Positions 6,297 through 62,901 of a stretch of DNA of 64,000 nt are shown here, piece by piece; the stretch's first letter is position 1; each line of letters begins with the position of its first letter. The translations under genes were made by a program, and so were the position numbers. The stretch is from a virus. The notes below the pieces were generated by a model. The model made no database searches. It was not told the origin of the DNA and saw only the letters and a program-made list of their open reading frames with translations. Location of the stretch: IMG/VR virus record IMGVR_UViG_3300043788_000040, positions 64,001 through 128,000 of that record. The stretch is one strand, 5' to 3'.

Positions 6297-6303
6297 AGTT
6301 AGG

Positions 6304-15011: not shown

Positions 15012-15153
15012 TTCGCAGCGGTGTATTGTACGGTTACTTCATGCAACCAGTAGGTCGCGGGTTCGAATCCCGTCATCCCAACGCTTTACGGGGTGTAGCT
15101 CAGTGGTAGAGCGACAGGTAAGAAAAACGCCGTGCATCTTTGTTCCCTGCGGA
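15012..15153 (+). ncRNA. YrlA-like Y RNA (circularly permuted tRNA-like domain)
   Basis: GCAG-C-GG/CC-CTGC bulged terminal helix; T arm, closed acceptor stem and D arm GCTCAGTGGTAGAGC in permuted order; motif shared with RNAs next to the TROVE gene. Confidence 0.75.
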
Positions 15154-15525
15154 TTAACTTTTCCTCGTTTAGCAAAACGAGGTGGCGCAGCGGAGAAGCT
15201 TTAGCGACTCCGTCAGCCGTTCTCGGACGTAAACCGAGTGGTGGAGGCGGGCACACTGTGCTCGCCCCTCAATGTCAGTTGAAGTACCGACGAGGCACGA
15301 AATGTGTGAACCGTTGACTCGGGAAAAAGACTGGCACCAAATTTGAAGATGTTGTCCCAGTCAAGCTGTCGGACTAAACTCTGGACCCGGAGTAATGGGC
15401 TTGAAAGAAGCCATGCCCTAATAAGGAAGGCTGACAGCAAAAGATTACAATGAAGCTCACGTCCCAACTCGACACGTTTACCACGCCGCTTAAGGCGGCG
15501 CAGTAAACCTATCTGTGTACTGTAC

Positions 15526-15601
15526 CCGGACGTAGCTGATGTGGACTTAGCGCCACCCTGAAAAAGTGGAGATGGGAGTTCGATTCTCCCCGTCCGGACC
15601 A
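15526..15601 (+). tRNA. tRNA with Phe anticodon (GAA) and Pro-like acceptor stem
   Basis: CCGGACG/CGTCCGG-ACCA, loop CTGAAAA. Confidence 0.8.
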
Positions 15602-15603
15602 AC

Positions 15604-15681
15604 GGGGAGCGAGCTAGTCCGGTGATTTAGCGTCCGCCTGAAGAGCGGAAGAATTCGGTTCGACTCCGAGGCTCCCCGCCA
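15604..15681 (+). tRNA. tRNA-Phe(GAA), atypical (G8, G37, G73)
   Basis: GGGGAGC/GCTCCCC-GCCA, TCCGC-CTGAAGA-GCGGA. Confidence 0.8.
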
Positions 15682-16042
15682 CTCCTTCAAAAATTCTACC
15701 TTCGTACTTCGCAGCCTCATCCAACCACTTTTGTTCAGTTCTATTTGAATGCTCGATACGATGACAGTTTGAGCACAGCAGATCACATTTGTCTAATTCT
15801 GCTTTGATCACTTCCCAGCTTCTATTGGCGACGTCACCGATACCGAAGTCCTTTTCGTTCGGATCACGGTGGTGGAATTCAAAAGCAGCCGGGTGCCCGT
15901 TGAATCCACATCGCAAACATTTGCCACCAAGATATGCAATAGCAGCATTTTTAGCGCGTATGCGTCTGATTTTCGTGTTGCAAGAGTTGCAGCGATAGCG
16001 ACGCTGGTCGGGATGATCACGCCCACAGAGAGGACATTGCAT
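15614..16042 (-). CDS. HNH endonuclease
   Basis: CLRCG...FHHRDP...KCDLLCSNCHRIEH. Confidence 0.85.
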   Translation of the reverse strand: MQCPLCGRDHPDQRRYRCNSCNTKIRRIRAKNAAIAYLGGKCLRCGFNGHPAAFEFHHRDPNEKDFGIGDVANRSWEVIKAELDKCDLLCSNCHRIEHSNRTEQKWLDEAAKYEGRIFEGVAGSLGVEPNSSALQADAKSPD

Positions 16043-16138
16043 TGGTAGAGCACTCCTTGTTCTACCTTACCTTTGTTCCTGACAAATTGCAACGGCCTCA
16101 GTATTATATTGTCACGAGCACTAGAGGTCTCGTGAGAT

Positions 16139-16498
16139 ATGGCACACCAAAAAGTAGCTGGACGTGGGTGTATTTACTGCATTTACGAAAGCACCGACAA
16201 CACTCCGCTAGACAAGCAAAGCGCACGATACGTGGGAAAAACCTTTGATTTTGACGCCCGGTTAGCCGGACACAATCGAGAAATCCAAGCCCAACAAGAT
16301 GGGAAAAAGACCGCCTCCCTTAACGTGGATAGGAAGATTGCGTCGGGTCGGCGTGGCGGTAAGAGATACACGATGGAGTGTATCAAGCACCACGTGGCAA
16401 GCACAGATTTGAGTGCGTGGGAAAAGCATCTCATTGCTGAGTACAACACATACGGCGCTGCCGCCGAGCTTCAGTGGAACGAGACTGAAGGCGGATAG
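16139..16498 (+). CDS. GIY-YIG nuclease
   Basis: CIYCIY...YVGKT...RLAGH...WEKHLI...WNETEGG. Confidence 0.75.
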   Translation: MAHQKVAGRGCIYCIYESTDNTPLDKQSARYVGKTFDFDARLAGHNREIQAQQDGKKTASLNVDRKIASGRRGGKRYTMECIKHHVASTDLSAWEKHLIAEYNTYGAAAELQWNETEGG

Positions 16499-16515
16499 TC
16501 CAGTATTAGTCATGG

Positions 16516-19500
16516 ATGGACGAACTTTTCCCGCAAGAACAAACAACCGAAACGCCCGCCAAGAAGACACGCAAGCCGCGAGCACCCAAGGCTGAAAAGC
16601 CGAAGAAGGTGAAGCCCGCACGTGACATCCGAACTGTGTTCCGTGAGAAGCTCGCTGGTATAACCGTTGATGGCATCAAGAAGCCATGGATGGCGGAGAA
16701 GGTTTTCCGCTTGGTCACAACGGCGGAGGAGCTTGAGGCATGGGCGGACGGCATTCTAGCCGACACGTCTAGGCACCACGCTTGGGCAGGCAACACTTGC
16801 CCTGTCATTGCAGTTGACACCGAAACGACCAGTCTAGACACCCGCATCTTCACCGACATCAAGCAAGACTCAGATGGTAACTGGTACCTAGTTTATGAAG
16901 TCAAGACTGAGATCGCCGGGGTCTGCCTGTCTGCTGACGGTATTGAGGGGCTGTACATTCCGGTCAACCACGAAAAGGGCGTGAACGTTCCCCGTGCTGA
17001 CGTAGCACGAATCCTCCAGAGGCTCTTTGATAAGTCCCACCTGATTTTCTACAACGGAAAATTTGACCGTGAGGTCATGAAGATCACGCTGGGCATGACG
17101 TTCCGTGGCTACCCCCACTTTGAAGACGTCCAAGTTTTGAACTACATCAACGACCCGAAGGCTGACTTCGGCGACAAGGCAAGCTTTCAAGGCGGTGCGG
17201 AGGGGCTGAAGAAACTCTCCGAACGAGTACTCGGAATTGAACAGATTGAAATTGACGAGGTCGCTAAGGTTCGCTGCCACGTCTGGAACAATGAAACACA
17301 GAAGAACACGCTGAAGCAGAAGGTCGTCCCGTTCACTTGGATTCCACCCGACATCGCTTTGTGGTACGCCGCAGCCGACGCGATATGCACGTGGCTCTTG
17401 TGGAGCCGCATGAAGGACTTGGCACGAAGCCGCAAGCTGGTTCACAGGATTGACCATGAGCTTGTTGATTCGCTCGCATACGTTGAACGCCAGCGCTTCC
17501 TCGTTGACGTGGACCGCCAACACCGCACCGCTCGCTGGCATGGGCGCACACTTGCGGAATTGAAGGCGAAGCTGGTGAAGCTTGCCGAGGCGGCTGGCTG
17601 GACGCAGGAGTTCAATCCTGGTTCCCCTCCGCAACTTGCCAAGTTGCTGTTCACCATGATGGGCTTCACGTCTACCATCACCACCGACAGCGGTGCGAAG
17701 TCTACCAACAAGGAGACGCTGACGGAGCTTGTCAAGGATCACCCGGATAACGAGTTTCTGAAGGCGCTTCAGGACTACCGTGAGCTTGCAGCGCTGCACC
17801 CGGACAACTTGCGCTACGACCCGAAGGACAACTCGGCGAGAATCTACCTCAAGCAGAACGTCGTCGCCGGGGGACGCCTCTCGGGCGGTGGTGGAGAGTT
17901 TGAGAAGGACGGCGGGCTGGAATGGAACCCGCAGGGCGTCAAGAAGCTGGAGAAGGAAGACTTCTGGCGTGTGTACGGCCACGTGTTGGAGCCGGACTCT
18001 GTGGAAGCGTACGACATTGAAGAGCATGATGAGAGTGAGCTTCACCCGTCCTGCTTCGTTGAGGAAAGAGGAGTCAAGACGAAGGCTCCCGGCATCATCA
18101 AGAACCACATCGGTCTGTACCAAGACTATGCGATCTGCCTCGTGCCCGGCTGCAAGACCTGTAGGGACAGGTTCGGTCTTCTGATTGAAGACACGTCGCT
18201 GGATGCGAATCAAGTTGTCAACCTCCGCGTGCTGATGACTGCGCTCAAGGGCTGGACGTTCTTCAGCATTGACTACTCAAACATTGAGATGCGTGCAATG
18301 GCGAACCTGTCCGGTGAGCCGAAGTACGTTCAGGAATTCATGACCGGAAGCGGCGACTTCCATGACCTGACTGCTAAGAACATCTTCCCGCAGTACAGCG
18401 ACCCGACGTCAAAGGACTACAAGTCCAAGACGCTGCGTGGCGTTGCCAAGATCATCAACTTCGCCATCAACTACGGCGGCACTGCTCATGCTATCTACAA
18501 GAACCTGATCAAGAAAGACCCGGCCATGACCATGAAAAGAGCCGAGGAACTGGTTGATAAGTATTGGGCGGGCGTGCCGGAGTTTAGGAAATGGTGCGAC
18601 GTCAAGCAGGCTCGGGCAAAGAATGACTTCGTGACGGAGACCGCTACGGGGCGTGTGATTGACTTCAAGTCGGCGATGGAGCATGAGCACATCCACACAC
18701 CGACGCAGCAGGAAAAGGCGCTCCTGAAAAAGTACTACGACTACAAGCGTGAAGCCAAGGCTGCGAAGGAACGTGGTGACAAGGAAGTTGAGCAGTCGTA
18801 CCAGAACGCAGGAGACAGGCTGTGGAAGAACCCGGAGACGGGCGTCCGCAACGCTATTGACTACAACCAGTTCATCGGTAAGGCGCAGCGCGTGGCGGTC
18901 AACACTCCGGTGCAGGGACTCTGCGGCGACTTCATGCGCATCTCCATCAACCGCATCAAGAAGTGGGTTGAAAAAGACCCGGACGTTCAAAGAGTGTTCC
19001 GTTTCCACGGCTCTGTCCACGACGAAATTGACGTGTCCATCAAGAATGAGTATGTGCCGTTCATTCTGCCACGTCTCACACGCTGGATGAAGCTGCGCAA
19101 GTACCACGAGAGTATGCAGTGGCCCGTTCCCATTGAGTGCGATGCGGAATATGGTCGTAGCTGGGATGTGGACTGGAGCATCAACAAGGTCGGGTACACG
19201 TACATTGACGGTCTTGAGACCTACGTGCCTGACGTGTTCAACTCGGTCACGATCAACAATCTGTACAAGGCTATCGCCTCTGGCGACGAGACGAAACGTG
19301 AGAAGGCTAAGGGCTACCTTCAGCAGTCACTTCATCCACGTGCCTTTGAGTCCACGAAAACCCTGTTCAAATCGCAGGACAGGAAAGAAATCCAGAACCA
19401 GCTTATCGCCGTGCTCCAGCTTCACGAGTACTGGACGATTGATCACACGCCAGACGGAGACGACGGTGACAAGAGTCTTGAGACGCTGGCACAGTACGAG

Positions 19501-19731
19501 GAACGCATGGGCATCAGCGCACGTGATCCGCTCTGCCCGGAGTTCGGGTACATGGGGCCGATTCCGCTGGACAACCCGAATGTGATCCGCCCGGAACCGA
19601 ATCTGCTTGACGGACCAGTCGGCGAGATTACGACCCCGGAAACTTCCGAACCGCAAACGGAAGAAACTGCTTGGGTTGAGACTTCTCTTGACGATCCGCA
19701 GGCCTTCCTGACGCATAAAGTAGGAGCGTAG
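16516..19731 (+). CDS. DNA polymerase family A with 3'-5' exonuclease
   Basis: VDTET, YNGKFD, YAAADA exonuclease motifs; DYSNIEMR (A), KIINFAINYG (B), VHDEI (C). Confidence 0.97.
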   Translation: MDELFPQEQTTETPAKKTRKPRAPKAEKPKKVKPARDIRTVFREKLAGITVDGIKKPWMAEKVFRLVTTAEELEAWADGILADTSRHHAWAGNTCPVIAVDTETTSLDTRIFTDIKQDSDGNWYLVYEVKTEIAGVCLSADGIEGLYIPVNHEKGVNVPRADVARILQRLFDKSHLIFYNGKFDREVMKITLGMTFRGYPHFEDVQVLNYINDPKADFGDKASFQGGAEGLKKLSERVLGIEQIEIDEVAKVRCHVWNNETQKNTLKQKVVPFTWIPPDIALWYAAADAICTWLLWSRMKDLARSRKLVHRIDHELVDSLAYVERQRFLVDVDRQHRTARWHGRTLAELKAKLVKLAEAAGWTQEFNPGSPPQLAKLLFTMMGFTSTITTDSGAKSTNKETLTELVKDHPDNEFLKALQDYRELAALHPDNLRYDPKDNSARIYLKQNVVAGGRLSGGGGEFEKDGGLEWNPQGVKKLEKEDFWRVYGHVLEPDSVEAYDIEEHDESELHPSCFVEERGVKTKAPGIIKNHIGLYQDYAICLVPGCKTCRDRFGLLIEDTSLDANQVVNLRVLMTALKGWTFFSIDYSNIEMRAMANLSGEPKYVQEFMTGSGDFHDLTAKNIFPQYSDPTSKDYKSKTLRGVAKIINFAINYGGTAHAIYKNLIKKDPAMTMKRAEELVDKYWAGVPEFRKWCDVKQARAKNDFVTETATGRVIDFKSAMEHEHIHTPTQQEKALLKKYYDYKREAKAAKERGDKEVEQSYQNAGDRLWKNPETGVRNAIDYNQFIGKAQRVAVNTPVQGLCGDFMRISINRIKKWVEKDPDVQRVFRFHGSVHDEIDVSIKNEYVPFILPRLTRWMKLRKYHESMQWPVPIECDAEYGRSWDVDWSINKVGYTYIDGLETYVPDVFNSVTINNLYKAIASGDETKREKAKGYLQQSLHPRAFESTKTLFKSQDRKEIQNQLIAVLQLHEYWTIDHTPDGDDGDKSLETLAQYEERMGISARDPLCPEFGYMGPIPLDNPNVIRPEPNLLDGPVGEITTPETSEPQTEETAWVETSLDDPQAFLTHKVGA

Positions 19732-19732
19732 G

Positions 19733-20539
19733 ATGGCGGGTTCAGAACACAAGCATAAGCGCTGCCCGCAGTGCGGCGGCGAGATTGACTACTTCGGCTC
19801 GTGCCGCAGGTGCGGTCGCGAATGGACCGAAACCCTCGAAGACGACGAGGTCGCCGATGGTCTGCCCGAGGGACAGCAGCACCCGGCTGAGATAAAGCCC
19901 CCGCCCAGCAAGAAGCCCCGCAAGAACCGCTACACGAAGTCATCCAAACAGGCTGCCTCGGCTGACAAGTACTCCCTCTGGCGCATAGACGCCGACAACG
20001 ACGACGACACCGAGATTACCAGAAAGCGTTCGTTGATGCGGCTGGATTCCCGCAAGACATACAACGCAATGGGGTTGTCCCTCCGTGCGCACGAGGCGGA
20101 GAAAGCCGCGCTGCTGTGGCTTTCAAGGTTGTGGGAGTTCTTGTCTAAGGAAGAGCAGGATGCACTCACTCCGGCTGTTGATCACCTGAAGCGCAGCTTT
20201 GCGGATGTCAGGCTTGTAGCGCAGTCAAAAGTCAACGAAGCGGCACGGATGGAAATAGAGTTGGAGAAAGAGCACAAGGCGGCACGGACGGCTCGCATTC
20301 GGCTCATAAAAGCGGCAACCAAGAAACAGGTAGAGGCAGCCAAGCAGATCACACCGGGGCAGGACACGGAAGGCATGAACCTTCCCGATCCAGCGGTACT
20401 TGACCCGAAGGCGCTGGGGCTGCTTTCGCAAGAGGACCTTCTGGAACTTGCCAAGGAGAAACTGTCTAACCTTGACCAAGAGAAGGCTTTGCGGCGTCGC
20501 ACCGAGCGCCCCACGGACGATGACAGCCCAGAGGAATAA
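19733..20539 (+). CDS. Hypothetical protein with N-terminal zinc ribbon
   Basis: CPQCG...CRRCG. Confidence 0.7.
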   Translation: MAGSEHKHKRCPQCGGEIDYFGSCRRCGREWTETLEDDEVADGLPEGQQHPAEIKPPPSKKPRKNRYTKSSKQAASADKYSLWRIDADNDDDTEITRKRSLMRLDSRKTYNAMGLSLRAHEAEKAALLWLSRLWEFLSKEEQDALTPAVDHLKRSFADVRLVAQSKVNEAARMEIELEKEHKAARTARIRLIKAATKKQVEAAKQITPGQDTEGMNLPDPAVLDPKALGLLSQEDLLELAKEKLSNLDQEKALRRRTERPTDDDSPEE

Positions 20540-20574
20540 AGCTGGCTATCTGATTGCATTTATAGGGAATAAGC

Positions 20575-23211
20575 ATGGCAGACGAGAAAAAGCCCTCCAA
20601 GCGTGTCCGTAACGGCAACGTGCAGGTGGGTAAAACCATTGAATCCCGCAAGGTAGCGACCGCCACCGACAAGGATGGGGTCGTCCGTGAGTTTGCGTCT
20701 GCCGGGCGCTACACCACCTTTGACGGCAAGGAAATCCGTGACGACGTAGCCTACCGCACCAAGCTCCGCTCCCTGCGTGGGCTGGCTGACTCCTTCCTTG
20801 GCGATGATGAGACCCGCCAGTCCGGCAAGATGGCAGGTATGTTCGGCGGCGACGGTGGTCTCGGCTACGCTGACATTGCCGACTCCAACAACATCGGCTA
20901 CTACTCCTACGAATTCCCGGTTGACGCACTTGAACTCCCCGCCTCCCGTGCTGAAGAACTTCGTTTCTATCGCCTCGCATACGACCGTGATCCCATCGTC
21001 GGCCGTGCCATTGACTTGCACACCGAGCTTCCGCTGTCCAAGATGGAACTCAGCAAGCCGAAGTCTTCCAGCGAGGAATACGCGGACTTTGTTTTTGACG
21101 AATATCAGCGTGTCGTGCAAAGCACGAGGTTGTTTCAAGTCCTGATTGATGCGGTGCGTGAGTACTGGACAATCGGCGAGACCTTCATCTTCGTTGAGAA
21201 GCCAGCCGACATTGAGCCATGCAAGGAAGCGACGAAGCAGCTTGAGAAGGGCAAGAAGGGCGACGCAGCCGAACCCGGCAAAGAGTCCCAGTTCAACACC
21301 CCGCTGGGCGGCACGTCCGACCGGATCATTGAGTACCTTGAACCGTCAAAGAAATCCTCGTGGTTAAAGAAGCGTGCCTTTGAGATTGACAGGCTGGTGA
21401 AAGCTGGGGTCGGTTTTGACTTTGATGAGGATGTTGAAAAGGTCGCAGGAGCCATCAAGGAGAAGCGTGCTTCGCTGAACCAGAAGACACGCAAGTACGC
21501 GAAGGTTGCTGGAGTCCCGGCTAAGAAGCTTGCGAAGCTCATCATAGCGGCGGACTCAGGCGGCACCCTCGCCCTTGACAGGATCGCGGCGCTCGCCAAG
21601 GCGACGCTGGCGAAACTCATCGGTCGCACCGACGTAGACGACTCACTCAACGCCCCGATCCAGCAGATCGCAGCCATTACCAAGACCGCACAGCCTCCCG
21701 GTGTCACTGACCCCGGCGCTGCGGCTCCGGCTGCTCCCGCTGCGGGCGGTGCTGGTGAAGCTGGCGGCGGCGCACCTCCGGGCGCTGAAGGCGAAGCTTT
21801 ACCTAGCGTTCCTGGTGCCGAAGGTGCCATGCCGGGCGCAGAGGGCGCTCCCCTCGGCGATGCCGGGCTTGGCGACATTGATGGCGGTGGCGGTATGCCC
21901 ATGGGTGGCGGTGGAGGCGGTGGAGCAGGTATCCCCGCTGACATGGCTGGCGAGGCGCAGGACGCCATCGCAACTGGCGCAAGCATCACGGCGCAGCGTG
22001 AACTCATGGAGATGAAGCACCTCCTCGGCTTGCTTGAAAAGAAGAAGGAACTGCTTGAGGAGTTGAAGGAAATCCGTGAGAAGAAGCAGGAAGAGCTTGA
22101 GCTTTTCTCGCACATCACCAACAAGGACTACGACGGACCGACGAAGATTCAAATCCTGCCCCCGGAACAGATGGAGATCGCCAACGAGGGTCAGATGGAA
22201 GACGGCCCGACGATCTACTACAAACCGCCCGAGAACCAGAAGCAGGCGTATCTGGAAGACCCGGATGTGCCGTCTGAGGTCAAGGAAAAGATTCAGACCG
22301 AGGGTAAGATTCCGCTCAATCAAGACCCGATGAAGGGCAGCTATGTGATTCACCTTGCCCGCAAGAAGTCGGGCTATGAGCTTCACGGGCGCTCAATCCT
22401 TCAGCGCTGCATCCGCACGGTCATCTACCGTGAGAAGCTGCGCCAAGTTCAGTCCACGCTGGCGTCCCGCAACATGACGCCGAAGACCATGGTCATCGCA
22501 CCGGGCATCCCGACGTCTGAAGTCATGGCTCTCCGTGCTCACATTGACGAGGCAAAGGCTGATCCAGACTACTCCGTCGTGCTCAACTACGAAGCCCGCT
22601 GGGACGAAATCGGTTCCGAGGGTCGCCTGCTTGTGCTTGACGGCGAGTACTCGCACACCAACTCAGACTTGGCAATTGGTCTGGGTTTGTCCCCCGAAAT
22701 CCTGATCGGTGAGGGCATGTATTCCGGCAACCGCATTCAGATGCAGTTGATTGAGACCTCGTACACGCAGTTCCGTGACTTGCTCACGGGCATCATTGAA
22801 GACCAAATCTTCAAGCCCATCGCCATGGAGAAGGGCTTCTATGAGATGGACAAGTACGGACGCCCGCGCTGGATTTTCCCGAAGGTGTCATTCAGCCGCA
22901 TGGCTCTCCGCGACTCCGGCGACCTGTACGACATGCTGTTCAACCTGTACAGCAAGGGTTCGCTCCCGGTTGACATCATTTACGAGTTCTTGAACCTCGA
23001 CCCCGAGGACTGCGAACGCAAGCTTGAGGACGCACTTTTCACGGTCAAAGACAGCAAATTCAACGAGATGCTCAGTAATATCTATGGTTCGGTGGGCGAG
23101 TGGATGATGGCGAACACCGACCTTGGCAAGCGCCTAACCAAGGGTCTGACTTTGAACGAGGTAGACCATACCGAGGACGAAGGACCAGAGGGTTCTGGCG
23201 AAGGTGTCTAA
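20575..23211 (+). CDS. Probable portal protein with long low-complexity insertion
   Basis: DPIVGRAIDLHTELP, REYWTIGETF, IHLARK..YELHGRSILQR pattern resembles large-phage portals; precedes virion genes. Confidence 0.6.
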   Translation: MADEKKPSKRVRNGNVQVGKTIESRKVATATDKDGVVREFASAGRYTTFDGKEIRDDVAYRTKLRSLRGLADSFLGDDETRQSGKMAGMFGGDGGLGYADIADSNNIGYYSYEFPVDALELPASRAEELRFYRLAYDRDPIVGRAIDLHTELPLSKMELSKPKSSSEEYADFVFDEYQRVVQSTRLFQVLIDAVREYWTIGETFIFVEKPADIEPCKEATKQLEKGKKGDAAEPGKESQFNTPLGGTSDRIIEYLEPSKKSSWLKKRAFEIDRLVKAGVGFDFDEDVEKVAGAIKEKRASLNQKTRKYAKVAGVPAKKLAKLIIAADSGGTLALDRIAALAKATLAKLIGRTDVDDSLNAPIQQIAAITKTAQPPGVTDPGAAAPAAPAAGGAGEAGGGAPPGAEGEALPSVPGAEGAMPGAEGAPLGDAGLGDIDGGGGMPMGGGGGGGAGIPADMAGEAQDAIATGASITAQRELMEMKHLLGLLEKKKELLEELKEIREKKQEELELFSHITNKDYDGPTKIQILPPEQMEIANEGQMEDGPTIYYKPPENQKQAYLEDPDVPSEVKEKIQTEGKIPLNQDPMKGSYVIHLARKKSGYELHGRSILQRCIRTVIYREKLRQVQSTLASRNMTPKTMVIAPGIPTSEVMALRAHIDEAKADPDYSVVLNYEARWDEIGSEGRLLVLDGEYSHTNSDLAIGLGLSPEILIGEGMYSGNRIQMQLIETSYTQFRDLLTGIIEDQIFKPIAMEKGFYEMDKYGRPRWIFPKVSFSRMALRDSGDLYDMLFNLYSKGSLPVDIIYEFLNLDPEDCERKLEDALFTVKDSKFNEMLSNIYGSVGEWMMANTDLGKRLTKGLTLNEVDHTEDEGPEGSGEGV

Positions 23212-23248
23212 TTTTCCGGCTTTCAAGCCCTAATTTGAGGGACAACTC

Positions 23249-23935: not shown

Positions 23936-23962
23936 GCCTGAACGCCACGCTCAAAATACTGG

Positions 23963-23995
23963 AAAGGCGGCACTTACAAAGTGCCGCCTTTTCTT
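23963..23995 (+). terminator. Intrinsic terminator
   Basis: AAAGGCGGCACT/AGTGCCGCCTTT plus T tract. Confidence 0.85.
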
Positions 23996-24029
23996 GTCTT
24001 TGGCGAGCCTTTAGTAGGGGAATGACGCC

Positions 24030-30236: not shown

Positions 30237-30242
30237 TGGGTA

Positions 30243-53187: not shown

Positions 53188-53483
53188 AAAATGAACGTGC
53201 CCGTGACGATGTAGTCTGTCGCGGCAAGCAAAGCGGATGAAAAGGTCAGCGTAATCGAGTCTGTCAATCCAATTGCTCCTGTGACCGTGATCGTGTTGTC
53301 TGAACAATTCAGATTTGTCACGCTAGTGGGCATGAGGGCCATGGCTGTGAAGCCATCAGAGATAGTTTGACCAGTGGGGGAAGCATAGCTGAGTGCTGCC
53401 GTGCCGAGTGAGATGGTGATGGACGTTGCAGACCCGTCACCGTGCAATTGGACGCCGAAGTTGATGGACTGTTTGATAGCCAT
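53184..53483 (-). CDS. Small structural protein
   Basis: Beta-rich; N-terminus similar to the 53485-54693 product. Confidence 0.6.
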
Positions 53484-53484
53484 T

Positions 53485-54693: not shown

Positions 54694-54769
54694 AGTGTTT
54701 GACTGCCTCCTGCCCAAGGAACGTAAAGTGCGCCGACGCATCGGCTTGCGACAAGGGCAAACTTAGGGA

Positions 54770-56767
54770 TTAGTATTCGTACCCCACGACGCACACAGTC
54801 GCGTTGCCAGTGTTCACCTGCGAAAGTGTGCTGATGCCCACTTGCTGACCAGCCGCTATTTCTAATCCATCTGGAAAAACTTGCTCGGCGTTGCCTACGT
54901 CAGCCGTGCCTGAGGTCGTAGATGGAGAGGCGAATAGGGTGCAGTAAATCGGCGAGGTGACGAGGACAGCCGCAGCAGCGCGGATGCGTGCTTTGACTGC
55001 GCCGATGCCAGTATTGACTTGCGAAGCCAGCGTCATGCTCTGCATGCGGAACGTTTTACCAGCCGTCACGGTGTACGAAGTTCCCGTTGTCGTTGCACCG
55101 TTCTTGGTGATGCTCATCGTCTGCAAAGCTTCCGCCGCTGGGGCTGTAACGTTGTCGATATACAACACCACTACGGTGCGACCAGAGTCCTTGAGTTCTT
55201 GCACCTTGGTCGGTGGTACTCCGTTGGATTGTGCCGCGAAACCAACGGTGACCGTGCCCGTCCCTGTGATAGCTGGGCTGAGTCGGACGCGGAAGTATTG
55301 CCAGCCTCCGATGTTGAACTTGAAGGAGATGTAGGTGCTGGCTTGGAACGTGTAGGACTGGATGTCATTGCCGTCAGCGGCATAGTTGACACCTGAGGCT
55401 GCGACCCAGTTGGCGTTATCGTTGCTGACTTCGAAGTTGGCAGCACCACCCGTGATCGTCGTCGTCTGGTTGAAAGTGACTAGGATAGTGTTGTACGAAA
55501 AGTTCGCACTGAGCAGGGTGACGGCTGTATTGTTCGCTGTGGCAGATGTCCAAGATGCAGCGGCGGTGTTGCTAGTGCCGCTGTTCGCTTCCTTCAAAGC
55601 ACCAATGGCGTCAACCTGCAAGGGCGATACGTTACCCGTGGTGATTGTAGTGGGGGTCGTGTTGAACTGTCCGGCGATCAGAAGCTCGTTGGCAGGAGAG
55701 GCTGCGTTTTGACCCGCAGCATCCATCGCCGCGCCCGTATTTCCGACAATGCCAACCTTCTGCACACCAGCCGCAGCCGTTACGACAGCCACACCTGCCA
55801 CTGCTTGCAGATCGTGATTGAGTGCGCCGTGTAAATCGGTAACGGGCAGGACTTGATCGCCTGTCGTGTAAGTGACAGTCGTGTACGCGGTCTCAGCAAT
55901 CGCAGGCAGTACGCCAAGATTTTGAGCGTTCGGAGCCGCGTTATTGTTGGTCAAGTTGCCAACGACTGTGAACGGTGCGGCTGGGTTTGTCACATTGACG
56001 TTCAGCGACGTGCCTGTCGCGGTGATCCCGGTGACGCCAGCGAACAGAGAAGAGTTGACGGCTGGAACTGCAACGGCTGCTGGAGCCGATCCGAAGTTTA
56101 CAATCGCCGTGGCACCGAGTGCTGTACCTGCGACAGCTTGCAAATCTTGGTTGAGAGCACCGTGCAGGTCCGTGACGGGAAGCACCATGTCGCCCGTGGT
56201 GTAGGTGACGGTCGTGTACGCAGTCTCAGCAATAGCACCCAGTACGCCAACTAGCGTTGCGGTAGGAGCCGCGTTGTTGTTCGTTAGGTTTCCGTCAACG
56301 ACCCATGGGGTTGTGCTCTGCGTGACACCCACGGTCCCTGAGATTGCTGTCGTGGAGAGGGAACTGACAAACGAGTCAGCGGAGTATCCGATGGTGACCG
56401 TTCCCGTGCCTGTGATTGCCGAACTAAGAAGAACTTGAAAATACGGAATGGCGGTTAGGTTAAACTGGAAGACCGCGTAGGTGTTCGCTTGAAGCGTGTA
56501 CGTAGCTCCCACCAACGCCAGCGTGGAGGTGTTGAATCCTTGAAGGTTGAAGAAGTTTACGCCGTCGAAGCTGCCCTGAAATGTGACCACGCCGCCTGTG
56601 ATCGTGGTGGTCTGTGACAGGGAAATGTTCAGGGTGTTGTAGGAGATGTCATTGCTGACCAGCGAGGCGACTGTGTTGAGAGCAGTGCTGCTGTTCCACG
56701 CGACAAACGAAGGGTTCTGCGAACCTACGCTGATACTTGCCGTGATGGAATACTGTGACTCAGGCAT
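54770..56767 (-). CDS. Fibre-like repeat protein
   Basis: Repeats GNLTNNNAAP...AETAYTTVTYTTGD.VLPVTDLHGALN.DLQAVAG. Confidence 0.75.
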   Translation of the reverse strand: MPESQYSITASISVGSQNPSFVAWNSSTALNTVASLVSNDISYNTLNISLSQTTTITGGVVTFQGSFDGVNFFNLQGFNTSTLALVGATYTLQANTYAVFQFNLTAIPYFQVLLSSAITGTGTVTIGYSADSFVSSLSTTAISGTVGVTQSTTPWVVDGNLTNNNAAPTATLVGVLGAIAETAYTTVTYTTGDMVLPVTDLHGALNQDLQAVAGTALGATAIVNFGSAPAAVAVPAVNSSLFAGVTGITATGTSLNVNVTNPAAPFTVVGNLTNNNAAPNAQNLGVLPAIAETAYTTVTYTTGDQVLPVTDLHGALNHDLQAVAGVAVVTAAAGVQKVGIVGNTGAAMDAAGQNAASPANELLIAGQFNTTPTTITTGNVSPLQVDAIGALKEANSGTSNTAAASWTSATANNTAVTLLSANFSYNTILVTFNQTTTITGGAANFEVSNDNANWVAASGVNYAADGNDIQSYTFQASTYISFKFNIGGWQYFRVRLSPAITGTGTVTVGFAAQSNGVPPTKVQELKDSGRTVVVLYIDNVTAPAAEALQTMSITKNGATTTGTSYTVTAGKTFRMQSMTLASQVNTGIGAVKARIRAAAAVLVTSPIYCTLFASPSTTSGTADVGNAEQVFPDGLEIAAGQQVGISTLSQVNTGNATVCVVGYEY

Positions 56768-56799
56768 TGGATAATCCCCTACAAATCCCTTAGAAAGTC

Positions 56800-56830
56800 A
56801 AAAGAAAAGGGGCACCTTGCGGTGCCCCTC
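56800..56830 (-). terminator. Intrinsic terminator
   Basis: AGGGGCACC-GCAA-GGTGCCCCT followed by TTTCTTTT on the minus strand. Confidence 0.85.
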
Positions 56831-56905
56831 GTCCGAATGCCTCAACTTCAAGGCACGCCCTGATAAAGATCAAAATTGATGACAGGCAGGATGGGTACGA
56901 TCAAG

Positions 56906-56990
56906 CGGAAGGCACCGGAGTTGAACCGGAGAGGTTTCCCTCCCATCGCTTTATCAGGGCGTGCTCAATGACCTATTGAGATTACCTTCC
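56906..56990 (-). tRNA. 8/4-fold tRNA-like gene (allo-tRNA/tRNA-Sec-like), anticodon GAT, G73, CCA not encoded
   Basis: GGAAGGTA/TGCCTTCC 8-bp acceptor, 6-bp D stem, CTGATAA loop, GGAGG-GAAA-CCTCT variable arm, CCGG-TTCAACT-CCGG. Confidence 0.75.
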
Positions 56991-57045
56991 GAGAGCAGCC
57001 CTGCCTGTCAAATGTCTAATACCCTCTCCCCAACAATTCAGCCGA

Positions 57046-58602
57046 TTAGATTGCAGCGGCTTCTTCTGACCAGCGGATGGAACCAAAAGCCTTGGAAGTA
57101 CCAGTGCCGAACTTCTGAGCGGCAAGGGTGTAGGTGTCTCCAGGTGCCCCGGCAGCCATGTACTGCAACAGCATGTCGGTGTGCGCGGGAGCCGAAGCAA
57201 GCATAGATGACCAAACCACGGTTCCGGTGCCGATAGTGACAGCAGTCGCCGTGACGTCACGCTTGATGTGCGAACCAGTCGGAATACCAGTCGCCGTGAA
57301 CGCTGCGCCCGTGAGGGTTTGGGGGTTCTTGATGAGCACGACCTTGACCTGCGAGCCGTCTCCGTACGCCTGAACCTCGCGGATAAGGAATGACTCCGTG
57401 GTTGAGTTGGACTGAATCGAGATCAGCGGTACCAGCGTGGCGTTCGGCAGTGTGATGAGGGTCGTGAAGCCGGAGTCGTCAGCGAAGTAGTTGATTGACT
57501 GGGCATACTGCTCATCCGCAGGAATCGTGACCAGCGAACCGCCCTGCGACACGCGCAGAAGTTCTTGGTCGCCAGCGGTGTAAGCCGGGAGGGTGACGGT
57601 CGGGAACGTGCCGGAGTCCGTGACTGCGATCAACGCGCCGATGTTGTTCGTAGTCGGAGCCGCGTTGTTGTTCGTCAGGTTGCCAGCGATTACCCAAGGC
57701 GTGGTGCCCTGCGTGACTGCGACCGTGCCGCCCGTGACATCCACGTTCAGGCTGGAGCCTGTCGCGGTGATGCCCGTGGTTCCGGCGAAGATTGAAACGT
57801 TCGCGCCGATTACGTTTGCAGCAGCGGGTGCCGTACCGAAGGCGGTAACAGCAGTCGCACCCAGTTGGACGCCAGCCGAAGCCTGCATGTCGTTGTTGAC
57901 TGCGCCATGGAGGTCGGTGACTGCCAGTACTTGGTTGCCCGTCGTGTAGGTGACGGTGTTGTAAGCGGTCTCAGCGATGAAGCCCAGCACGCCCATGTTG
58001 TCGGCAATCGGGGCTGCCGTGTTGTTAGACAGGTTGCCAGCAACCGTGACGGTAGTCGTGCTACCAGTCAGGTTGACGTTCAGCGCACCGCCCGTGTTCG
58101 TCAGAGCCGTGGTGCCTGAGAAGATTGAGGAGTTGACAGCCGGAACGTTTACAGCGGCCGGAGCCGAACCGAAGGCGACTACTGCGGTCGCGCCAAGCTG
58201 GACGCCAGCAACAGCCTGCAAGTCGTCATTGACTGCTCCATGCAAGTCGGTGGTCGCCAGAACTTGGAAGCCGTTCGTGTAGGTGTTGGTCGTGTACGCG
58301 GTTGAAGCAAGGAAGCCAAGCGTGCCGAGGTTGTCTGCAACGGGCGCTGCGTTGTTGTTCGTCAACGTGCCCATGACGTTCGTGGTGCCCGCGAACGTGG
58401 CGTTGACGTTTAGAAAGCCGTTTGGAGTGGACGAGAGCGGCTGGAAGTTGCCGTTGCTGTCCATGCTGCCGACTAGGATGCCCGATGTCGGGGACGCTGT
58501 GCCATTAGCAGCAAATAAAGGCGATTCGGTGTTGTTGTCGTACAACCCGGAGACTGTGACTGTCGTGTACTGGTCAGTTCCGGGGAATAGTGTCAATGGC
58601 AT
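57046..58602 (-). CDS. Fibre-like repeat protein
   Basis: Same NNNAAP/TDLHGA repeats as 54770-56767. Confidence 0.75.
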   Translation of the reverse strand: MPLTLFPGTDQYTTVTVSGLYDNNTESPLFAANGTASPTSGILVGSMDSNGNFQPLSSTPNGFLNVNATFAGTTNVMGTLTNNNAAPVADNLGTLGFLASTAYTTNTYTNGFQVLATTDLHGAVNDDLQAVAGVQLGATAVVAFGSAPAAVNVPAVNSSIFSGTTALTNTGGALNVNLTGSTTTVTVAGNLSNNTAAPIADNMGVLGFIAETAYNTVTYTTGNQVLAVTDLHGAVNNDMQASAGVQLGATAVTAFGTAPAAANVIGANVSIFAGTTGITATGSSLNVDVTGGTVAVTQGTTPWVIAGNLTNNNAAPTTNNIGALIAVTDSGTFPTVTLPAYTAGDQELLRVSQGGSLVTIPADEQYAQSINYFADDSGFTTLITLPNATLVPLISIQSNSTTESFLIREVQAYGDGSQVKVVLIKNPQTLTGAAFTATGIPTGSHIKRDVTATAVTIGTGTVVWSSMLASAPAHTDMLLQYMAAGAPGDTYTLAAQKFGTGTSKAFGSIRWSEEAAAI

Positions 58603-58679
58603 ATAGGGGAGTCCTCTCCAACTTCGGGTTCAAAATCGCTTCTATCTGAGGGAATGGTAGTCGAAAAAGGGCTATCTCG

Positions 58680-59870
58680 TTAGAGACACGTGGCTTGTTC
58701 ATCCCAAGCAAACGAACACCCAGCTATTGATTTTGGGGTGCCCGTGGAGACAGCGCCGACATAAACGAGGGTGATGGTGTCCGGCGTCCCTCCGGTGAAT
58801 CCGAAGTGCATCTCATAATCGTGACGCTCGTGGTCAGCGCCGACGAACCCGGAGTCAATGAGCCTGCCCCCGGTGTAGGATGTCGCGGAGACGTCGTACT
58901 GGGCTTGGGACGCGGCGTCCACGTTCACGAAGCTCGCCCCGGTCAGCGTCGCGTTGAGGAGAAGCTGGTAATGGGACAGGTTCCCACCGCTGAGGAAGTC
59001 CGAGTTCCTGAGAGTGAATGTGACAGCGGTCGCCGCAACCTTTGGCCGGATGGACAGCAGGGGCACCAAGGCAGCCGTGGCGTTCGTCTTGAGCGCCGCG
59101 CCCGTGGTCGCACCGAAGCGCAGGACGTTGATGTCCGTCTCTTGGTCTTGCGTGAGCGTGACGATCTTGCCGCCCGTGGTAACCGAGATGTTTTGGAGTA
59201 CACCGTTGCAATCCGCACCGCCGATGAGGATAGGCTGGATGCAGGTCGGCGGGACGTACGCGGGCGCTGGGCAGATGGTGCTGCCTGCTGCATACAAACC
59301 CTGAACCTGAGGGTCCATCCAAGCCGCTGAGGTATTGCCCGGCTGCGAGATCAGGAGCATTCCGGGGTGCGTTGGGTGGCTGATGTTGGTGACAACCGGG
59401 GTGCAGGTATCGGTCGCAAGTTCGGTCGCCTCAATGACGCCTGTGCTACCACATTCAACGGTCAGCGTCGCACCGCTGCCGACCACCATCGTCGCTACGG
59501 TGTTCGTGCCGGACAGGATTTGGTCAAAGTGTACCGTTGTGCCTGAGGTCGTGTAGTAGGCGCTGATGTTTCCGCTGCCATCGGTCTGCCAAAAGACGTT
59601 GGACGAACCTGCCGGGGGTGCCGGGGTCAAGTTGTTGAAGTTCGGAGCCGCAGGGCCAAACAGAACTGCGGTGCCGTTGACGAATACCTCGTCAACGTCG
59701 GGACCTGTCGGCAAGAGGCACGGATCAATCTTGCAGTCGGGGCCAAGTAGGACTATAGCGCCGGGCTGCGCGGGGCAGCAGCCGTCAACGGCGGGGACAC
59801 GATACTCAGTCCAGAAGGGCTGGTTCGCTTTGTCCTTGCGATTTGCCAGTATGCTGTAGATGGGAGCCAT
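58680..59870 (-). CDS. Fibre/structural protein
   Basis: C-terminal domain resembles 57046-58602 (LVPLLSI...YDVSAT...PDT.TL...W.E). Confidence 0.7.
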   Translation of the reverse strand: MAPIYSILANRKDKANQPFWTEYRVPAVDGCCPAQPGAIVLLGPDCKIDPCLLPTGPDVDEVFVNGTAVLFGPAAPNFNNLTPAPPAGSSNVFWQTDGSGNISAYYTTSGTTVHFDQILSGTNTVATMVVGSGATLTVECGSTGVIEATELATDTCTPVVTNISHPTHPGMLLISQPGNTSAAWMDPQVQGLYAAGSTICPAPAYVPPTCIQPILIGGADCNGVLQNISVTTGGKIVTLTQDQETDINVLRFGATTGAALKTNATAALVPLLSIRPKVAATAVTFTLRNSDFLSGGNLSHYQLLLNATLTGASFVNVDAASQAQYDVSATSYTGGRLIDSGFVGADHERHDYEMHFGFTGGTPDTITLVYVGAVSTGTPKSIAGCSFAWDEQATCL

Positions 59871-60064
59871 TACTGGTTACCCCCTTGGCGCATCTGGTCT
59901 ATCATGTCGGGGCTGAAGCGGAGGTTACGTCCAATGCGAATGCACGGAATCTTGCCTGCGGAGGCGAGGCGGTAGAGAGTCTTCGGAGCGATCTTGACGA
60001 GCTTCGCAAACTCCTTGATCGTCAAAAGCTCGGTCTGGGAGCCTTTTTGTGTTCCAGAAGCCAT
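59870..60064 (-). CDS. Excisionase-like helix-turn-helix protein
   Basis: LLTIKEFAKLVKIAPKTLYRLASAGKIPCIRIGRNLRF. Confidence 0.85.
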   Translation of the reverse strand: MASGTQKGSQTELLTIKEFAKLVKIAPKTLYRLASAGKIPCIRIGRNLRFSPDMIDQMRQGGNQ

Positions 60065-60121
60065 TTCCTCAGTTTTCCCCGCTTTTCACTTAGGGGTTTG
60101 GTAGCAGGTTTTTACTTTTGA

Positions 60122-60901
60122 TTAGCCGAACAGGGCTTCCATATCGGTGATGAAGGCTTGCGCAGCGACCCCGATCAGTTGGCGGGGGGCCTGAGAAGGC
60201 GAGACGTTGGTCTCGCTATAGAAGAGCCAAACCTTGCGGGCTGCCGGGTCGGTCACGGTGCCGGAGTCGGCATTGCTGTAGCCGTTTGTGTTCAGTGTCG
60301 CCAAGCCCACATCGCCGCTCGCCCCGCATCCCGCCGTGCCGTAGTCTGCGTGTGTGAACGGTGCTGTGAAGCTGGCGTAGCCGGATGGGTCGGAGGGATT
60401 TTTTGAGACGCTGGCGATGGTCACAGTCTGGGCGTTGAGGAACGTCGCATTCACCAAGCCAGAGAAAGTCACGGTCATACCTACGACCCAATCCTGCCGG
60501 GCGGTGACAGTCAGCACGTTGGACACGATTTCAACCGCCGACACGGGCGCTGTGATAGCGGGCATGGTCGCCGTGAAGGCTCCAGGCGTTGCTGTGCTGA
60601 CGTTCACGATCTTGCCGTTCAGGAATGAGGCATTGGTCAGCCCGTTAATCAGGGCGGCGTTCATGTTCGCTTGGAAGGTGTTGACGCCAGTGACGGTGAG
60701 CAAGCCGCCTGCGATTGCGATGTTGGTGATTTGGGGCATGCGGATAGTGGGCTGATCCGCTTCAAGATACTGAAGCCCGTTGACGTTGATCATCACTTCC
60801 TTACCGTGTGGGTCAAAGGTAAAGTCCGGCTTGTAAATCCAGAAAGCCGCGTGGATCGTCGTGTTTAGTTGGAAGCCCGCTTCAAACTGATTCAACGGCA
60901 T
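60122..60901 (-). CDS. Structural protein sharing modules with the 2068-aa protein
   Basis: GL.NA.FLN...V.....FTA repeats; FTAPFTHADYG also occurs in 24030-30236. Confidence 0.7.
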   Translation of the reverse strand: MPLNQFEAGFQLNTTIHAAFWIYKPDFTFDPHGKEVMINVNGLQYLEADQPTIRMPQITNIAIAGGLLTVTGVNTFQANMNAALINGLTNASFLNGKIVNVSTATPGAFTATMPAITAPVSAVEIVSNVLTVTARQDWVVGMTVTFSGLVNATFLNAQTVTIASVSKNPSDPSGYASFTAPFTHADYGTAGCGASGDVGLATLNTNGYSNADSGTVTDPAARKVWLFYSETNVSPSQAPRQLIGVAAQAFITDMEALFG

Positions 60902-61324
60902 GTACCCCTACCTATGGTGGGAAAGCCCACGAATACCAAGTACTCGGGCTGGACAAAAATGTCCATTTCGCTGTATACTATTGCTGTGAGAGACCCTCTA
61001 AAATGCCCACGGTGTGGGCTTGGCAAAGACACGGACGGCGACGGCGATTGTCCGGTATGCGCCCACTGGGAAGACGGTCGAGAAGTCGGCCCGGCGCTCG
61101 CTAAGCTGATCCGCAGGAGCAAGAAGAAACAATGAGCCGCACCTACTCGCGGAGGACATGCCGATGCGGGCGGGAAGTCAGCGCCAACGGCGCAGCGTGG
61201 CACAACCACATGATGGGGCACGTCCGCAAGGGCGAGGCAACCAAATCATTCGTAATCTCCGGCTGCCTCACGCCGGGCGCTGGTTCACGGTACACCGAAT
61301 TTCGCTGGATAAAGGAGCCTGCTA

Positions 61325-62146
61325 ATGCGACGAGGAAGTAAGCCCGCTTTGATCTACGACGAGGTTCGCAAGAACGCAGACGGCAAACCGCTGCTTCTCG
61401 GCATCAACCTTTCCTCGGACTTTTGCGCCGAGCACGAGTGGGGCATCAAGGACATCAAGTCCGCTTTTGGCATCCCCGAAAAAGGTTACGGCTTGAAGCG
61501 CCGCCAGATCACAGCTACGCCCAAAGGACTTGCATGGGTGAAGTACGCTGCCAAGACCTACATGGGACGTTACGACGTGGAACGAGGTTTGGCGAAGAAG
61601 GTTGGGGATGTGACTCTCAAGAACGAGGGCTTTGTCTTCCATGGCTGGTACGGATTGGAGCCAGAGAAGATGGCGGTCTCCAGCGAGTTGTCTGGCGCTG
61701 GTCTCCGGGGCGCATGGTCGGACGACGATTTCGCTGCCGTGTCCAGCAGCCCGGAGGACATCGTCGCCCTCAAGGAAATTTTCTCCGCGTTTGAAAACAA
61801 AAACATCGCTGTCTGCTTCTCCGCTGCACTGCCCGCTTTTGACAACGCAGGTCTCGTCTTCGCCATCGCCGACCGCCTGCCCGAGAGTGTCACCGAAGAT
61901 TGGGACAAGTACGACCGGGAACAGGAGAAGATCAAGAAAGAGTTCACGGCGACTGGTATTGAGAAGCTTCTCGCCGATGCGGGCAAGCGGTACTATGCCC
62001 TTTCACCACGCCGCCGTGACGACGGTAGTCTGTGGTACTGGCTGAACCCTATGGAACAGCAGCAGCACAACTACGGCTGGTTCACTCTTGAAGACCTTCA
62101 GGCATGGGCACGCAACGAAGGTCCGATCCCGATGAAGCAAAAGTAG
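61325..62146 (+). CDS. Hypothetical protein
   Basis: AAGGAG RBS, 273 aa. Confidence 0.7.
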   Translation: MRRGSKPALIYDEVRKNADGKPLLLGINLSSDFCAEHEWGIKDIKSAFGIPEKGYGLKRRQITATPKGLAWVKYAAKTYMGRYDVERGLAKKVGDVTLKNEGFVFHGWYGLEPEKMAVSSELSGAGLRGAWSDDDFAAVSSSPEDIVALKEIFSAFENKNIAVCFSAALPAFDNAGLVFAIADRLPESVTEDWDKYDREQEKIKKEFTATGIEKLLADAGKRYYALSPRRRDDGSLWYWLNPMEQQQHNYGWFTLEDLQAWARNEGPIPMKQK

Positions 62147-62159
62147 TTCAGTATTAGAC

Positions 62160-62570
62160 GTGATGGAAAGACCATCACGAATCATTGACGCAATCCGTGC
62201 TGAACTCGGACCGCACCTCGTCAAATCCAACTACCGCAAATTTCTCCCCAAGGACGCCAAGCCGTCGTGGGGCACCTGCTACGTGGCGTCCGAAGCCCTG
62301 TACCACTTGTGGGGTAAAGAGAATGGCTTCACGCCCGTCCGCATACCGTACAAGGTCAATCGCACTATGAACGGGCAGCACTGGTTCCTTGAGCATAGGC
62401 CTTCGGGGTTCCAAGTGGACATCACGGCAGACCAGTTCACAAAGTCCCCGCCGAACCGGGTGCCGGACTGGACGAAGGCGGTTCCAGCCGGATTCCTTAC
62501 CAAAAAGCCCTCCAAACGTGCCCAACAGATCATTGACGTCGTCCGCAAAAAATTTCAGTTTGATAATTGA
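62160..62570 (+). CDS. Hypothetical protein, possible Cys-His-Asp (papain/transglutaminase-like) fold
   Basis: GTCYVASEAL...HWFL...DITADQF. Confidence 0.5.
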   Translation: MMERPSRIIDAIRAELGPHLVKSNYRKFLPKDAKPSWGTCYVASEALYHLWGKENGFTPVRIPYKVNRTMNGQHWFLEHRPSGFQVDITADQFTKSPPNRVPDWTKAVPAGFLTKKPSKRAQQIIDVVRKKFQFDN

Positions 62571-62595
62571 CAGAATCCCCTAACTACGGTATTCT
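62567..62595 (+). promoter_or_regulatory. sigma70-type promoter of Y RNA-TROVE operon
   Basis: TTGACA-N17-TATTCT, same hexamers as 4286-4314. Confidence 0.75.
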
Positions 62596-62664
62596 CCCTT
62601 AGAGAGACTTTGACGGTGGCGTTTCCCTGCGTCCGCAGGGCGACATCCCCTCTTAGCAATTTTG

Positions 62665-62766
62665 GTCGTGCAGCGGTGTTTAGCTGACGGATACTTCTTC
62701 CAATGAACAGCCCGCTAGGGCTGCGGAGGCTTGCCTCCTTTCCGTTGCTTATTGTTCCCTGCCGAC
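62665..62766 (+). ncRNA. Y RNA-like element 1
   Basis: GCAGCGG...ACGGATACTTC...CCGTTGCTTATTGTTCCCTGC; upstream of TROVE gene. Confidence 0.7.
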
Positions 62767-62775
62767 AATTCTTGT

Positions 62776-62901
62776 GTGCGGCGGTTTTTGGTTACGGTTA
62801 CTTCTGCCTGTAAAGCAGACGAGCGGGGTTCGACCCCCCGGCGACCCGTGAGGGTCGTGGCGTGGGCCTAGTCAAATACCGAAGCCTATTGTTCCCCGCA
62901 C
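62776..62901 (+). ncRNA. Y RNA-like element 2 with tRNA-Tyr-like arms
   Basis: GCGGCGG...ACGGTTACTTC...CCGAAGCCTATTGTTCCCCGC; TCTGC-CTGTAAA-GCAGA and T arm inside. Confidence 0.72.

Follow-up and report, generated by a model that had tools for sequence, protein, structure and literature searches.

What kind of system is formed by three RNA-like elements that share their ends, differ in their interiors, and lie up to 48 kb apart in one phage genome? The elements are found in a 64,000-nucleotide stretch of viral DNA (hereafter the window), which comprises bases 64001–128000 of a 170.5-kb IMG/VR record (IMGVR_UViG_3300043788_000040; record G000). This record is estimated to be 54% complete and thus represents a fragment of a jumbo phage genome. 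A preliminary description of the window had read the elements as Y-RNA-like genes with a common Ro-binding stem and different payloads, two preceding a TROVE gene and the third 48 kb away in a tRNA array. That arrangement is confirmed here. We find that the elements are best explained as parts of a Ro60 ribonucleoprotein system, in which one Ro60 protein (TROVE plus vWA domains) is accompanied by at least four phage-encoded Y RNAs. We put the probability of this reading at roughly 80%.

The elements, which we name Y1, Y2, and Y3, align at their 5' ends (GCRGCGGT..ACGGWTACTTC) and at their 3' ends (CCG..TTGTTCCCYGC). Both ACGGWTACTTC and TTGTTCCCYGC occur exactly three times in the window, always on the + strand and confined to Y1–Y3, which bears out the positions and motifs first reported. 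Across all 170.5 kb of the record, the combined 5' pattern is likewise found three times, while a reversed control pattern does not occur at all. On folding, the two ends of Y1, Y2, and Y3 pair with each other. The resulting stem has a single bulged C; GG/CC comes next, and an internal loop separates it from a second stem (ACGG/CCGU). The terminal helix with a single bulged C, as previously described, is thus recovered. The count of three holds for the window, but a fourth unit, Y4, lies in the record outside it.

The 5' and 3' ends of all four RNAs pair into a common frame. Its lower part comprises a variable, covarying stem, one bulged pyrimidine (C in this phage), and an invariant GG/CC. 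Above these is an internal loop, whose 5' strand has GGYG... and whose 3' strand has YUUGUUCC, and then a covarying upper stem followed by UUAC/AUAC. In published work, Ro60 binds Y RNAs at their bulged stem. Homology to YrlA/YrlB and to Yrl1/Yrl2 of phage phiLo makes the bulged, GG/CC-clamped frame the putative Ro60 handle, and the inserted module would be the effector side.

The TROVE open reading frame (ORF) starts at the right end of the window and continues beyond it. Pfam searches detected TROVE (PF05731, 63.1 bits), VWA_2 (PF13519, 38.7 bits), and vWA_Ro60 (PF25045, 30.5 bits), all above their cut-offs. The best solved relatives are structures of the Thermus phage phiLo Ro60 (9KOP/9L5Y; E 3.8e-32), which align over residues 12–467. 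Judged by its sequence, the protein is a true Ro60, with TROVE plus a Ro60-type vWA domain.

Table 1. Positions of the Y RNAs and of the features around the Ro60 gene (window numbering unless preceded by G000 or L103).
Feature	Position	Strand	Remarks
Y1	15012–15153	+	YrlA-type Y RNA in tRNA array
Promoter, sigma-70-like, TTGACA-17-TATTCT	62567–62595	+	10/12 matches
Leader hairpin before Y2, AGAGAGACTTTGACGG... stem-loop	62596–62664	+	Fold z-score -2.4
Y2	62665–62766	+	Shared frame plus two GC-rich hairpins, not tRNA-like
Y3	62776–62901	+	YrlA-derived Y RNA
Structured 5' leader of TROVE mRNA, two hairpins	62902–63019	+	Conserved in relatives
Ro60/TROVE gene	63020–64000, on to G000:128450	+	476 aa; terminator after gene
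Y4	G000:129028–129097 (= L103:1501–1570; 65028–65097 in window numbering, outside window)	+	Short unit, 70 nt

The link between the frame and Ro60 is also seen in other genomes. Searches for relatives of the TROVE protein recovered 18 viral and 79 metagenome loci. The flanks of distant TROVE loci contain tandem units with the frame ..GGYG-NAG..-stem-GNTACTTC...stem-YTTGTTCC... Units were harvested by a simple scan, and 40 short ones from other phage contigs were aligned to build a covariance model (R1), from which Y1, Y2, and Y3 were excluded; Y4 was among the training rows. The consensus fold of the 40 units has 16 pairs, 14 of which show compensatory changes, although covariation of the lower helix is partly circular because the harvest required a paired lower stem. 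On the consensus structure, 92.9% of cells are paired, compared with 60.9% in shuffled alignments and 45–56% when partners are slid. The upper stem, which was not used in selection, is 85–97% paired, and all eight of its pairs show compensatory changes.

When applied to the window, R1 matched Y3 (29 bits, E 3.7e-5) and Y2 (19.7 bits, E 0.009) and nothing else. The whole record added only Y4, at 60.1 bits, itself a training row. Across 86 TROVE loci (E ≤ 0.01), we detected 128 R1 matches in 59 loci, with at most four per locus, and all 128 were co-oriented with the TROVE strand. As a negative control, viral contigs were scanned for the exact pattern GCGGT-N-ACGGWTACTTC, which yielded at least 116 stretches, nearly all of them chance occurrences, and 80 of these loci were then searched with R1. 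Only two (L140 and L158) passed, and both of these records, chosen by the RNA motif alone, have TROVE beside the units. The 78 unrelated viral loci (~690 kb) gave no R1 match. R1 thus singles out TROVE loci, and phages other than the present one also have the motif close to TROVE genes; the lack of such an association, which the preliminary description named as a refutation, is not observed. Furthermore, sub-threshold Rfam YrlA matches adjoin TROVE in most distant loci. Units of related phages score 25–47 bits with this model (RF02553), so the whole phage clade falls below the curated YrlA threshold of 69 bits. The sequence evidence therefore supports the original view of Y-RNA-like genes that are tied to TROVE by a common Ro-binding-type stem.

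The same evidence bears on whether the elements might instead be decaying tRNA genes or tRNA-derived repeats with no connection to Ro60. Their T and D arms are tRNA-like, Y1 lies within a tRNA array, and the tRNA model gives weak matches to Y3 (20 bits, against a gathering score of 29) and to a sister unit in L030 (32.7 bits, above the cut-off). However, the frame that covaries is not that of a tRNA, and it persists among phages with TROVE proteins of only 25–50% identity. The units are also strictly co-oriented with TROVE, and some have no tRNA-like part whatsoever. A decaying-tRNA origin of this kind is thus highly improbable.

Three of the four RNAs flank the Ro60 gene on its own strand. 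Y2 ends 254 nt and Y3 118 nt before the TROVE ATG, and Y4 begins ~580 nt past the stop codon. Upstream of Y2 is a promoter whose box (TTGACA...TACGGTAT) is kept in relatives L024–L036, L077, and L102. It probably drives the leader, Y2, Y3, and TROVE as one transcript. The first element of this putative transcript is a leader hairpin in which AGAGAGACTTTGACGG is conserved, while the sequence of the stem varies among relatives.

The payload of Y2 was originally described as short hairpins, and folding agrees: a 3-bp/7-nt hairpin is accompanied by two GC-rich hairpins (fold z-score -4.3). The Y2 frame is kept in 11 orthologs. Its hairpins also appear to be kept, with different sequences, as judged by eye, since MAFFT misaligns the payload. 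Y3 is more elaborate. Its frame and UUAC are followed by a 5-bp/7-nt hairpin (62803–62819; loop CUGUAAA), CGAG, a T arm (62824–62840), a 7-bp acceptor-like stem capped by GTGA (62841–62858), and a mini D hairpin (GGC-GUGG-GCC, 3-bp/4-nt; 62859–62868) that is absent from the preliminary description. The consensus fold of six Y3 orthologs shows nine pairs with compensatory changes, and the frame, hairpin, T arm, and capped stem each contain some of them. Y3 displays the features of a YrlA domain only in part: it has the T arm, the closed 7-bp stem, and the UUAC, and its D arm is reduced.

Comparison within the close clade (TROVE 64–99% identical) bears on this reduction. The order of elements is the same throughout: promoter, leader hairpin, Y2-type unit, second unit, structured leader, and TROVE. 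The second unit varies, and three forms can be told apart. One is the Y3 form, whose mini D hairpin reads GGC-GYGG/TTGG-GCC and which is found in the window and in L024, L029, L031, L034, L036, and the related record G001. In L026, L027, L030, L037, and L077 the unit has a complete D arm (GGTG-CAATGGCA-GCAC), and L028 and L035 have a short form without payload. The Y3 and full-D-arm forms align throughout except at the D arm. Thus, Y3 is a YrlA with a reduced D arm, and it is the positional counterpart of the full-D-arm YrlA units in sister phages. We also observed a gene for the bacterial small signal recognition particle (4.5S) RNA between the second Y RNA and the TROVE start in L034 (2376–2473; 66.6 bits, gathering score 40), and in L026 and L038 this position is occupied by an insert whose core is similar (GGTCCGCAAGGAAAG).

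Between Y3 and the ATG lies the structured leader of the TROVE mRNA. The second of its two hairpins has a 26-nt loop with GCGUAGAAC, a sequence similar to the Ro motif in distant Y RNAs. By eye, a CGGG/CCCG pairing is replaced by CAGG/CCUG, and the second stem is compensatorily replaced in L031, L037, and L027. Rfam gave no match to this leader. From its sequence, the loop may be a Ro site for autoregulation. This raises the question of whether Y2 and Y3 act chiefly in cis, as parts of the TROVE 5' untranslated region that together with 62902–63019 would let Ro60 control its own synthesis, with no stable trans-acting Y RNAs released. Such an arrangement would fit the single promoter upstream of Y2, the lack of a terminator between Y3 and the ATG, and the GCGUAGA in the conserved loop of the last leader element. 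However, the frame is shared by Y1, in a tRNA operon at a distance of 48 kb, and by Y4, past the TROVE terminator, neither of which can act in cis on TROVE. Y RNAs upstream of the Ro60 gene in Mycobacterium smegmatis are processed from a precursor and bound by Rsr (PMC4201824). Cis-acting and trans-acting roles of Y2 and Y3 are also compatible with each other. We regard an exclusively cis-acting role as rather unlikely.

Y4 is a 70-nt RNA that consists of the bulged-C handle with almost no payload and is thus YrlB-like. It follows the TROVE terminator and two small ORFs and precedes a GIY-YIG endonuclease gene. Seven related contigs keep it (L024, L025, L026, L028, L030, L031, and L060), and the four-unit layout as a whole is kept in relatives L024–L038 and L077 (TROVE 64–99% identical), as well as in G001.

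Y1, on the same strand as TROVE and 47.9 kb from it, lies between tRNA-Met (14513–14589) and tRNA-Phe (15526–15601). Its bulged-C closing stem is followed by UUAC, a T arm, a closed 6-bp acceptor-like stem, and a full D arm. The YrlA model RF02553 matches it end to end (15027–15139; 45.1 bits, below the gathering score of 69; E 7.8e-9), and it has all features of the YrlA domain: the T arm, the closed acceptor-like stem, the D arm, and the upstream YUAY. Fold and match thus agree with the permuted T/acceptor/D module first proposed for it. The identification of Y1 is based on the Rfam match together with the shared motifs. No promoter or terminator of its own was found for Y1, and its probable source is therefore the transcript of the tRNA operon. 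G001 has a Y1 ortholog in the equivalent tRNA-Met/tRNA-Phe slot, ~52 kb from its TROVE gene and with two compensatory changes in the T stem. The remote position of Y1 is therefore conserved and no accident. Directly after Y1 is a structured stretch (15154–15300) that starts GGTGGCGCAGCGGAG. Within it, 36 nt (15212–15247) share 94% identity with a site in the tRNA region of Xanthomonas phage XacN1 that is either intergenic or at the edge of an ORF.

Several observations weigh against a Ro60 particle with four Y RNAs. The source phage is uncultured, and its RNAs and protein are known here from sequence alone. To the partial circularity noted above can be added that R1 does not recover Y1 (9.7 bits), because the payload insert of Y1 is long (80 nt). 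Comparison with Rfam YrlA, a check proposed at the outset, succeeded in part: Y1 matches below the gathering score, but neither Y2 nor Y3 gives a match. The published Ro motif (GNCGAA / CGAA) is not literally present in the four RNAs of this phage, which have GGUGUAU, GGUGUUU, GGUUUUU, and GGUGCUA at its position. GGCGAAG, GGCGUAG, and GGUGAAG are found there only in more distant members of the R1 family. Finally, searches of the record, which covers 54% of the genome, found neither PNPase nor RtcB.

The hairpin of Y3 (62803–62819) had been described as a full Tyr-type anticodon arm. The hairpin is real, with compensatory changes at two pairs, as are the T arm and the GTGA-capped stem that follow it, but the Tyr assignment does not hold. 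Its loop is CUGUAAA in the window and L036, CUGUUAA in L029 and G001, UGCUUAA in L031, and CUAUGAA in L034. The triplet thus varies among close relatives (GUA, GUU, CUU, and AUG), and no Tyr identity is kept. Nor is the hairpin particular to Y3, since most units of the family, short ones included, have a hairpin that starts in the UUC of UACUUC. A crude parser detected a 7-nt loop in 31 of 76 units, with the consensus C-U-G-U-W-A-A. Locally, the phage units have anticodon-arm geometry, with 5 bp and a 7-nt loop and then a 4–5-nt linker of AGGUC type and the T arm.

In published YrlA RNAs, a conserved YUAY precedes a stem-loop called "V", which is less conserved and lies upstream of the T arm (Chen et al. 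2014; PMC4201824). The Y3 hairpin occupies the position of this stem-loop, and the UUAC/AUAC within GWTACTTC corresponds to YUAY. Wang et al. 2018 (10.1101/312249) describe YrlA as lacking an anticodon loop and mention an earlier proposal that it originated from dimeric tRNA transcripts. We rejected Y3 as a tRNA or tRNA-Tyr mimic: ARAGORN called no tRNA there, the tRNA model score is below its gathering score, the acceptor stem is capped by GTGA, and the triplet is variable.

Could the hairpin nevertheless act as a decoy, its U-G-U-containing loop (CUGUAAA / CUGUUAA) baiting host anticodon nucleases or tRNA-modifying enzymes? It has the 5-bp, 7-nt geometry of an anticodon arm, with U at loop position 2 and A at 6–7; the 31 seven-nt loops share a consensus, and an AGGUC-type linker of 4–5 nt and a T arm follow. 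Functions related to tRNA are also strongly represented in the phage, which has large tRNA arrays, two RNA ligases, and a CCA-adding enzyme. However, the triplet is unconserved even in close relatives, the parser found the 7-nt loop in fewer than half of the units, and the versions in Y1 and Y4 are degenerate. In the 54% of the genome that was searched, no TGT gene was found and no nuclease, TGT, or immunity gene is linked to the tRNA-like units. The hairpin is, moreover, the "V" stem-loop of published YrlA RNAs. We therefore consider a decoy function very doubtful and find no evidence for the anticodon bait suggested in the preliminary description. The anticodon-arm geometry is compatible with a tRNA origin.

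Such an origin is also touched on by an element in the Leu tRNA array of the window (6230–6345), which reads TTGTTCC-CGACCGG-loop-CCGGCTCG-C-GG-TG...GATACTTC and has a T arm at 6323–6339. When read and folded, it appears as a Ro-type handle capped as a hairpin. Because the handle is closed by a loop, the ends of the RNA must lie in the tRNA-like part, which would make this a permuted fifth Y-like element. It has no match in G001, a result that is uninformative because G001 is a 27% fragment. One reading would extend these observations to the whole family. The hairpin after UAC would then be a retained anticodon arm, with its CUGUWAA loop, AGGUC-type variable loop, and T arm, and the Ro handle would have been inserted into a tRNA. 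Y RNAs would have arisen from tRNA transcripts, and the phage Ro60 particle would belong to a tRNA surveillance or counter-defense circuit with the RNase P RNA, the CCA-adding enzyme, and the RNA ligases of the phage, where the UGU loop is presented to host enzymes that read Q-family anticodon loops. The position of Y1 in a tRNA operon and the capped handle inside a tRNA-like RNA of the Leu array are cited for this reading. We consider it unlikely. If true, the retained arm would be living evidence that Y RNAs originated from tRNA transcripts.

We thus return to the Ro60 particle with at least four Y RNAs and to how it might work. Y2 and Y3 would probably be excised from the 5' leader of the TROVE mRNA and would join Y1 from the tRNA operon. 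Y1 would present a canonical permuted tRNA-like domain (YrlA), Y3 the same type of domain with a reduced D arm, Y2 two plain hairpins, and Y4 almost nothing. Each Y RNA might then dock Ro60 to a different partner. Candidate partners are host PNPase, as in RYPER complexes, and, for the tRNA-like modules, enzymes that bind the tRNA elbow. The phage would in this way redirect RNA decay or RNA quality control during infection. The proposal in the preliminary description that different payloads tether decay or repair enzymes is the published model of Y RNA function.

The window contains 15 tRNA genes, arranged in arrays. The record has two RNA_ligase-family genes (G000:C1:136845–138406 and 100942–101481). 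The first of these adjoins a gene for a CCA-adding enzyme, and this pair lies 8–10 kb downstream of TROVE. RNA-repair-type functions, the CCA-adding enzyme and ligases, are thus encoded near the Ro60 locus. Earlier literature has mentioned TROVE-bearing jumbo phages in connection with RNA repair.

Published precedents exist for several Y RNAs that share one Ro handle, for a tRNA-like RNA among them, and for a phage origin. New are the number of at least four Y RNAs, a conserved YrlA inside a tRNA operon far from the Ro60 gene, and a YrlA with a reduced D arm. The sequences further show that arrays of two to four Y RNAs (five in CcrColossus, one of them weak) are the rule in this phage Ro60 subfamily, where they have gone unannotated and fall below the YrlA threshold. 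Our analysis thus offers a well-supported, sequence-based map of a putative four-RNA Ro60 particle in a jumbo phage, and the sequences it assembles can serve to improve covariance models of phage Y RNAs.

Metazoan Y RNAs (named Y1, Y3, Y4, and Y5) follow the same general plan: they are paralogous, their bulged terminal stem binds Ro60, and a differing loop module recruits other factors. In contrast to the phage RNAs, they are not known to have a tRNA-like domain, and no sequence similarity between the two groups is known.

Among cultured phages, the Caulobacter jumbo phage CcrColossus (JX100810) has unannotated R1-family units upstream of its TROVE gene gp139, on the same strand. Five units lie in L242:2234–3212 (JX100810 complement 108717–109695), with scores of 15.6–48.9 bits, one of them weak, and a tRNA-Gln lies among them. 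One unit overlaps a feature annotated as a terminator. The tRNA-like part of one unit matches Y1 by BLAST. However, the CcrColossus TROVE gene matches that of the window over a short stretch only (70.7% DNA identity), and all of its units form a single cluster next to gp139. These units make the role of phage Ro60 and the partners of the payloads directly testable in Caulobacter.

Bacterial and phage Ro60 genes are known to have an adjacent YrlA and further Y RNAs, expressed in M. smegmatis as one processed precursor, and the motifs GNCGAAN0-1G and YUAY have been described for these RNAs (PMC4201824). Our phage resembles the bacterial and mycobacteriophage YrlA/YrlB systems in having a Ro-binding stem that carries a T arm, a closed acceptor stem, and a D arm in permuted order, and in the YUAY before the hairpin upstream of the T arm (RF02553; PMC4201824; 10.1101/312249). 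In those genomes, too, a tRNA-like Y RNA is accompanied by a short one, and the genes lie beside rsr. Our phage differs in that Y1, at 45 bits, stays below the gathering score of 69 and does not adjoin the Ro60 gene, and in that Y3, with its 3-bp/4-nt D hairpin and 5-bp/7-nt hairpin, escapes the Rfam model.

The closest parallel is the Thermus phage phiLo, whose Ro60 is the best solved relative of the window protein (PDB 9KOP, 9L5Y). It binds two Yrl RNAs encoded upstream and assembles with host PNPase into ternary complexes (PMC12135203). Both phages have two Y-like RNAs directly upstream of Ro60 on the same strand, and one of the phiLo RNAs has two hairpins, like Y2. Unlike phiLo, the jumbo phage has at least four Y RNAs, two with tRNA-like domains, one 48 kb away, and one downstream of the gene, and its handle has GGUG-U.. 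rather than CGAA. Thus, the locus reveals no new kind of system and provides a fuller example of one that is known in bacteria and phages.

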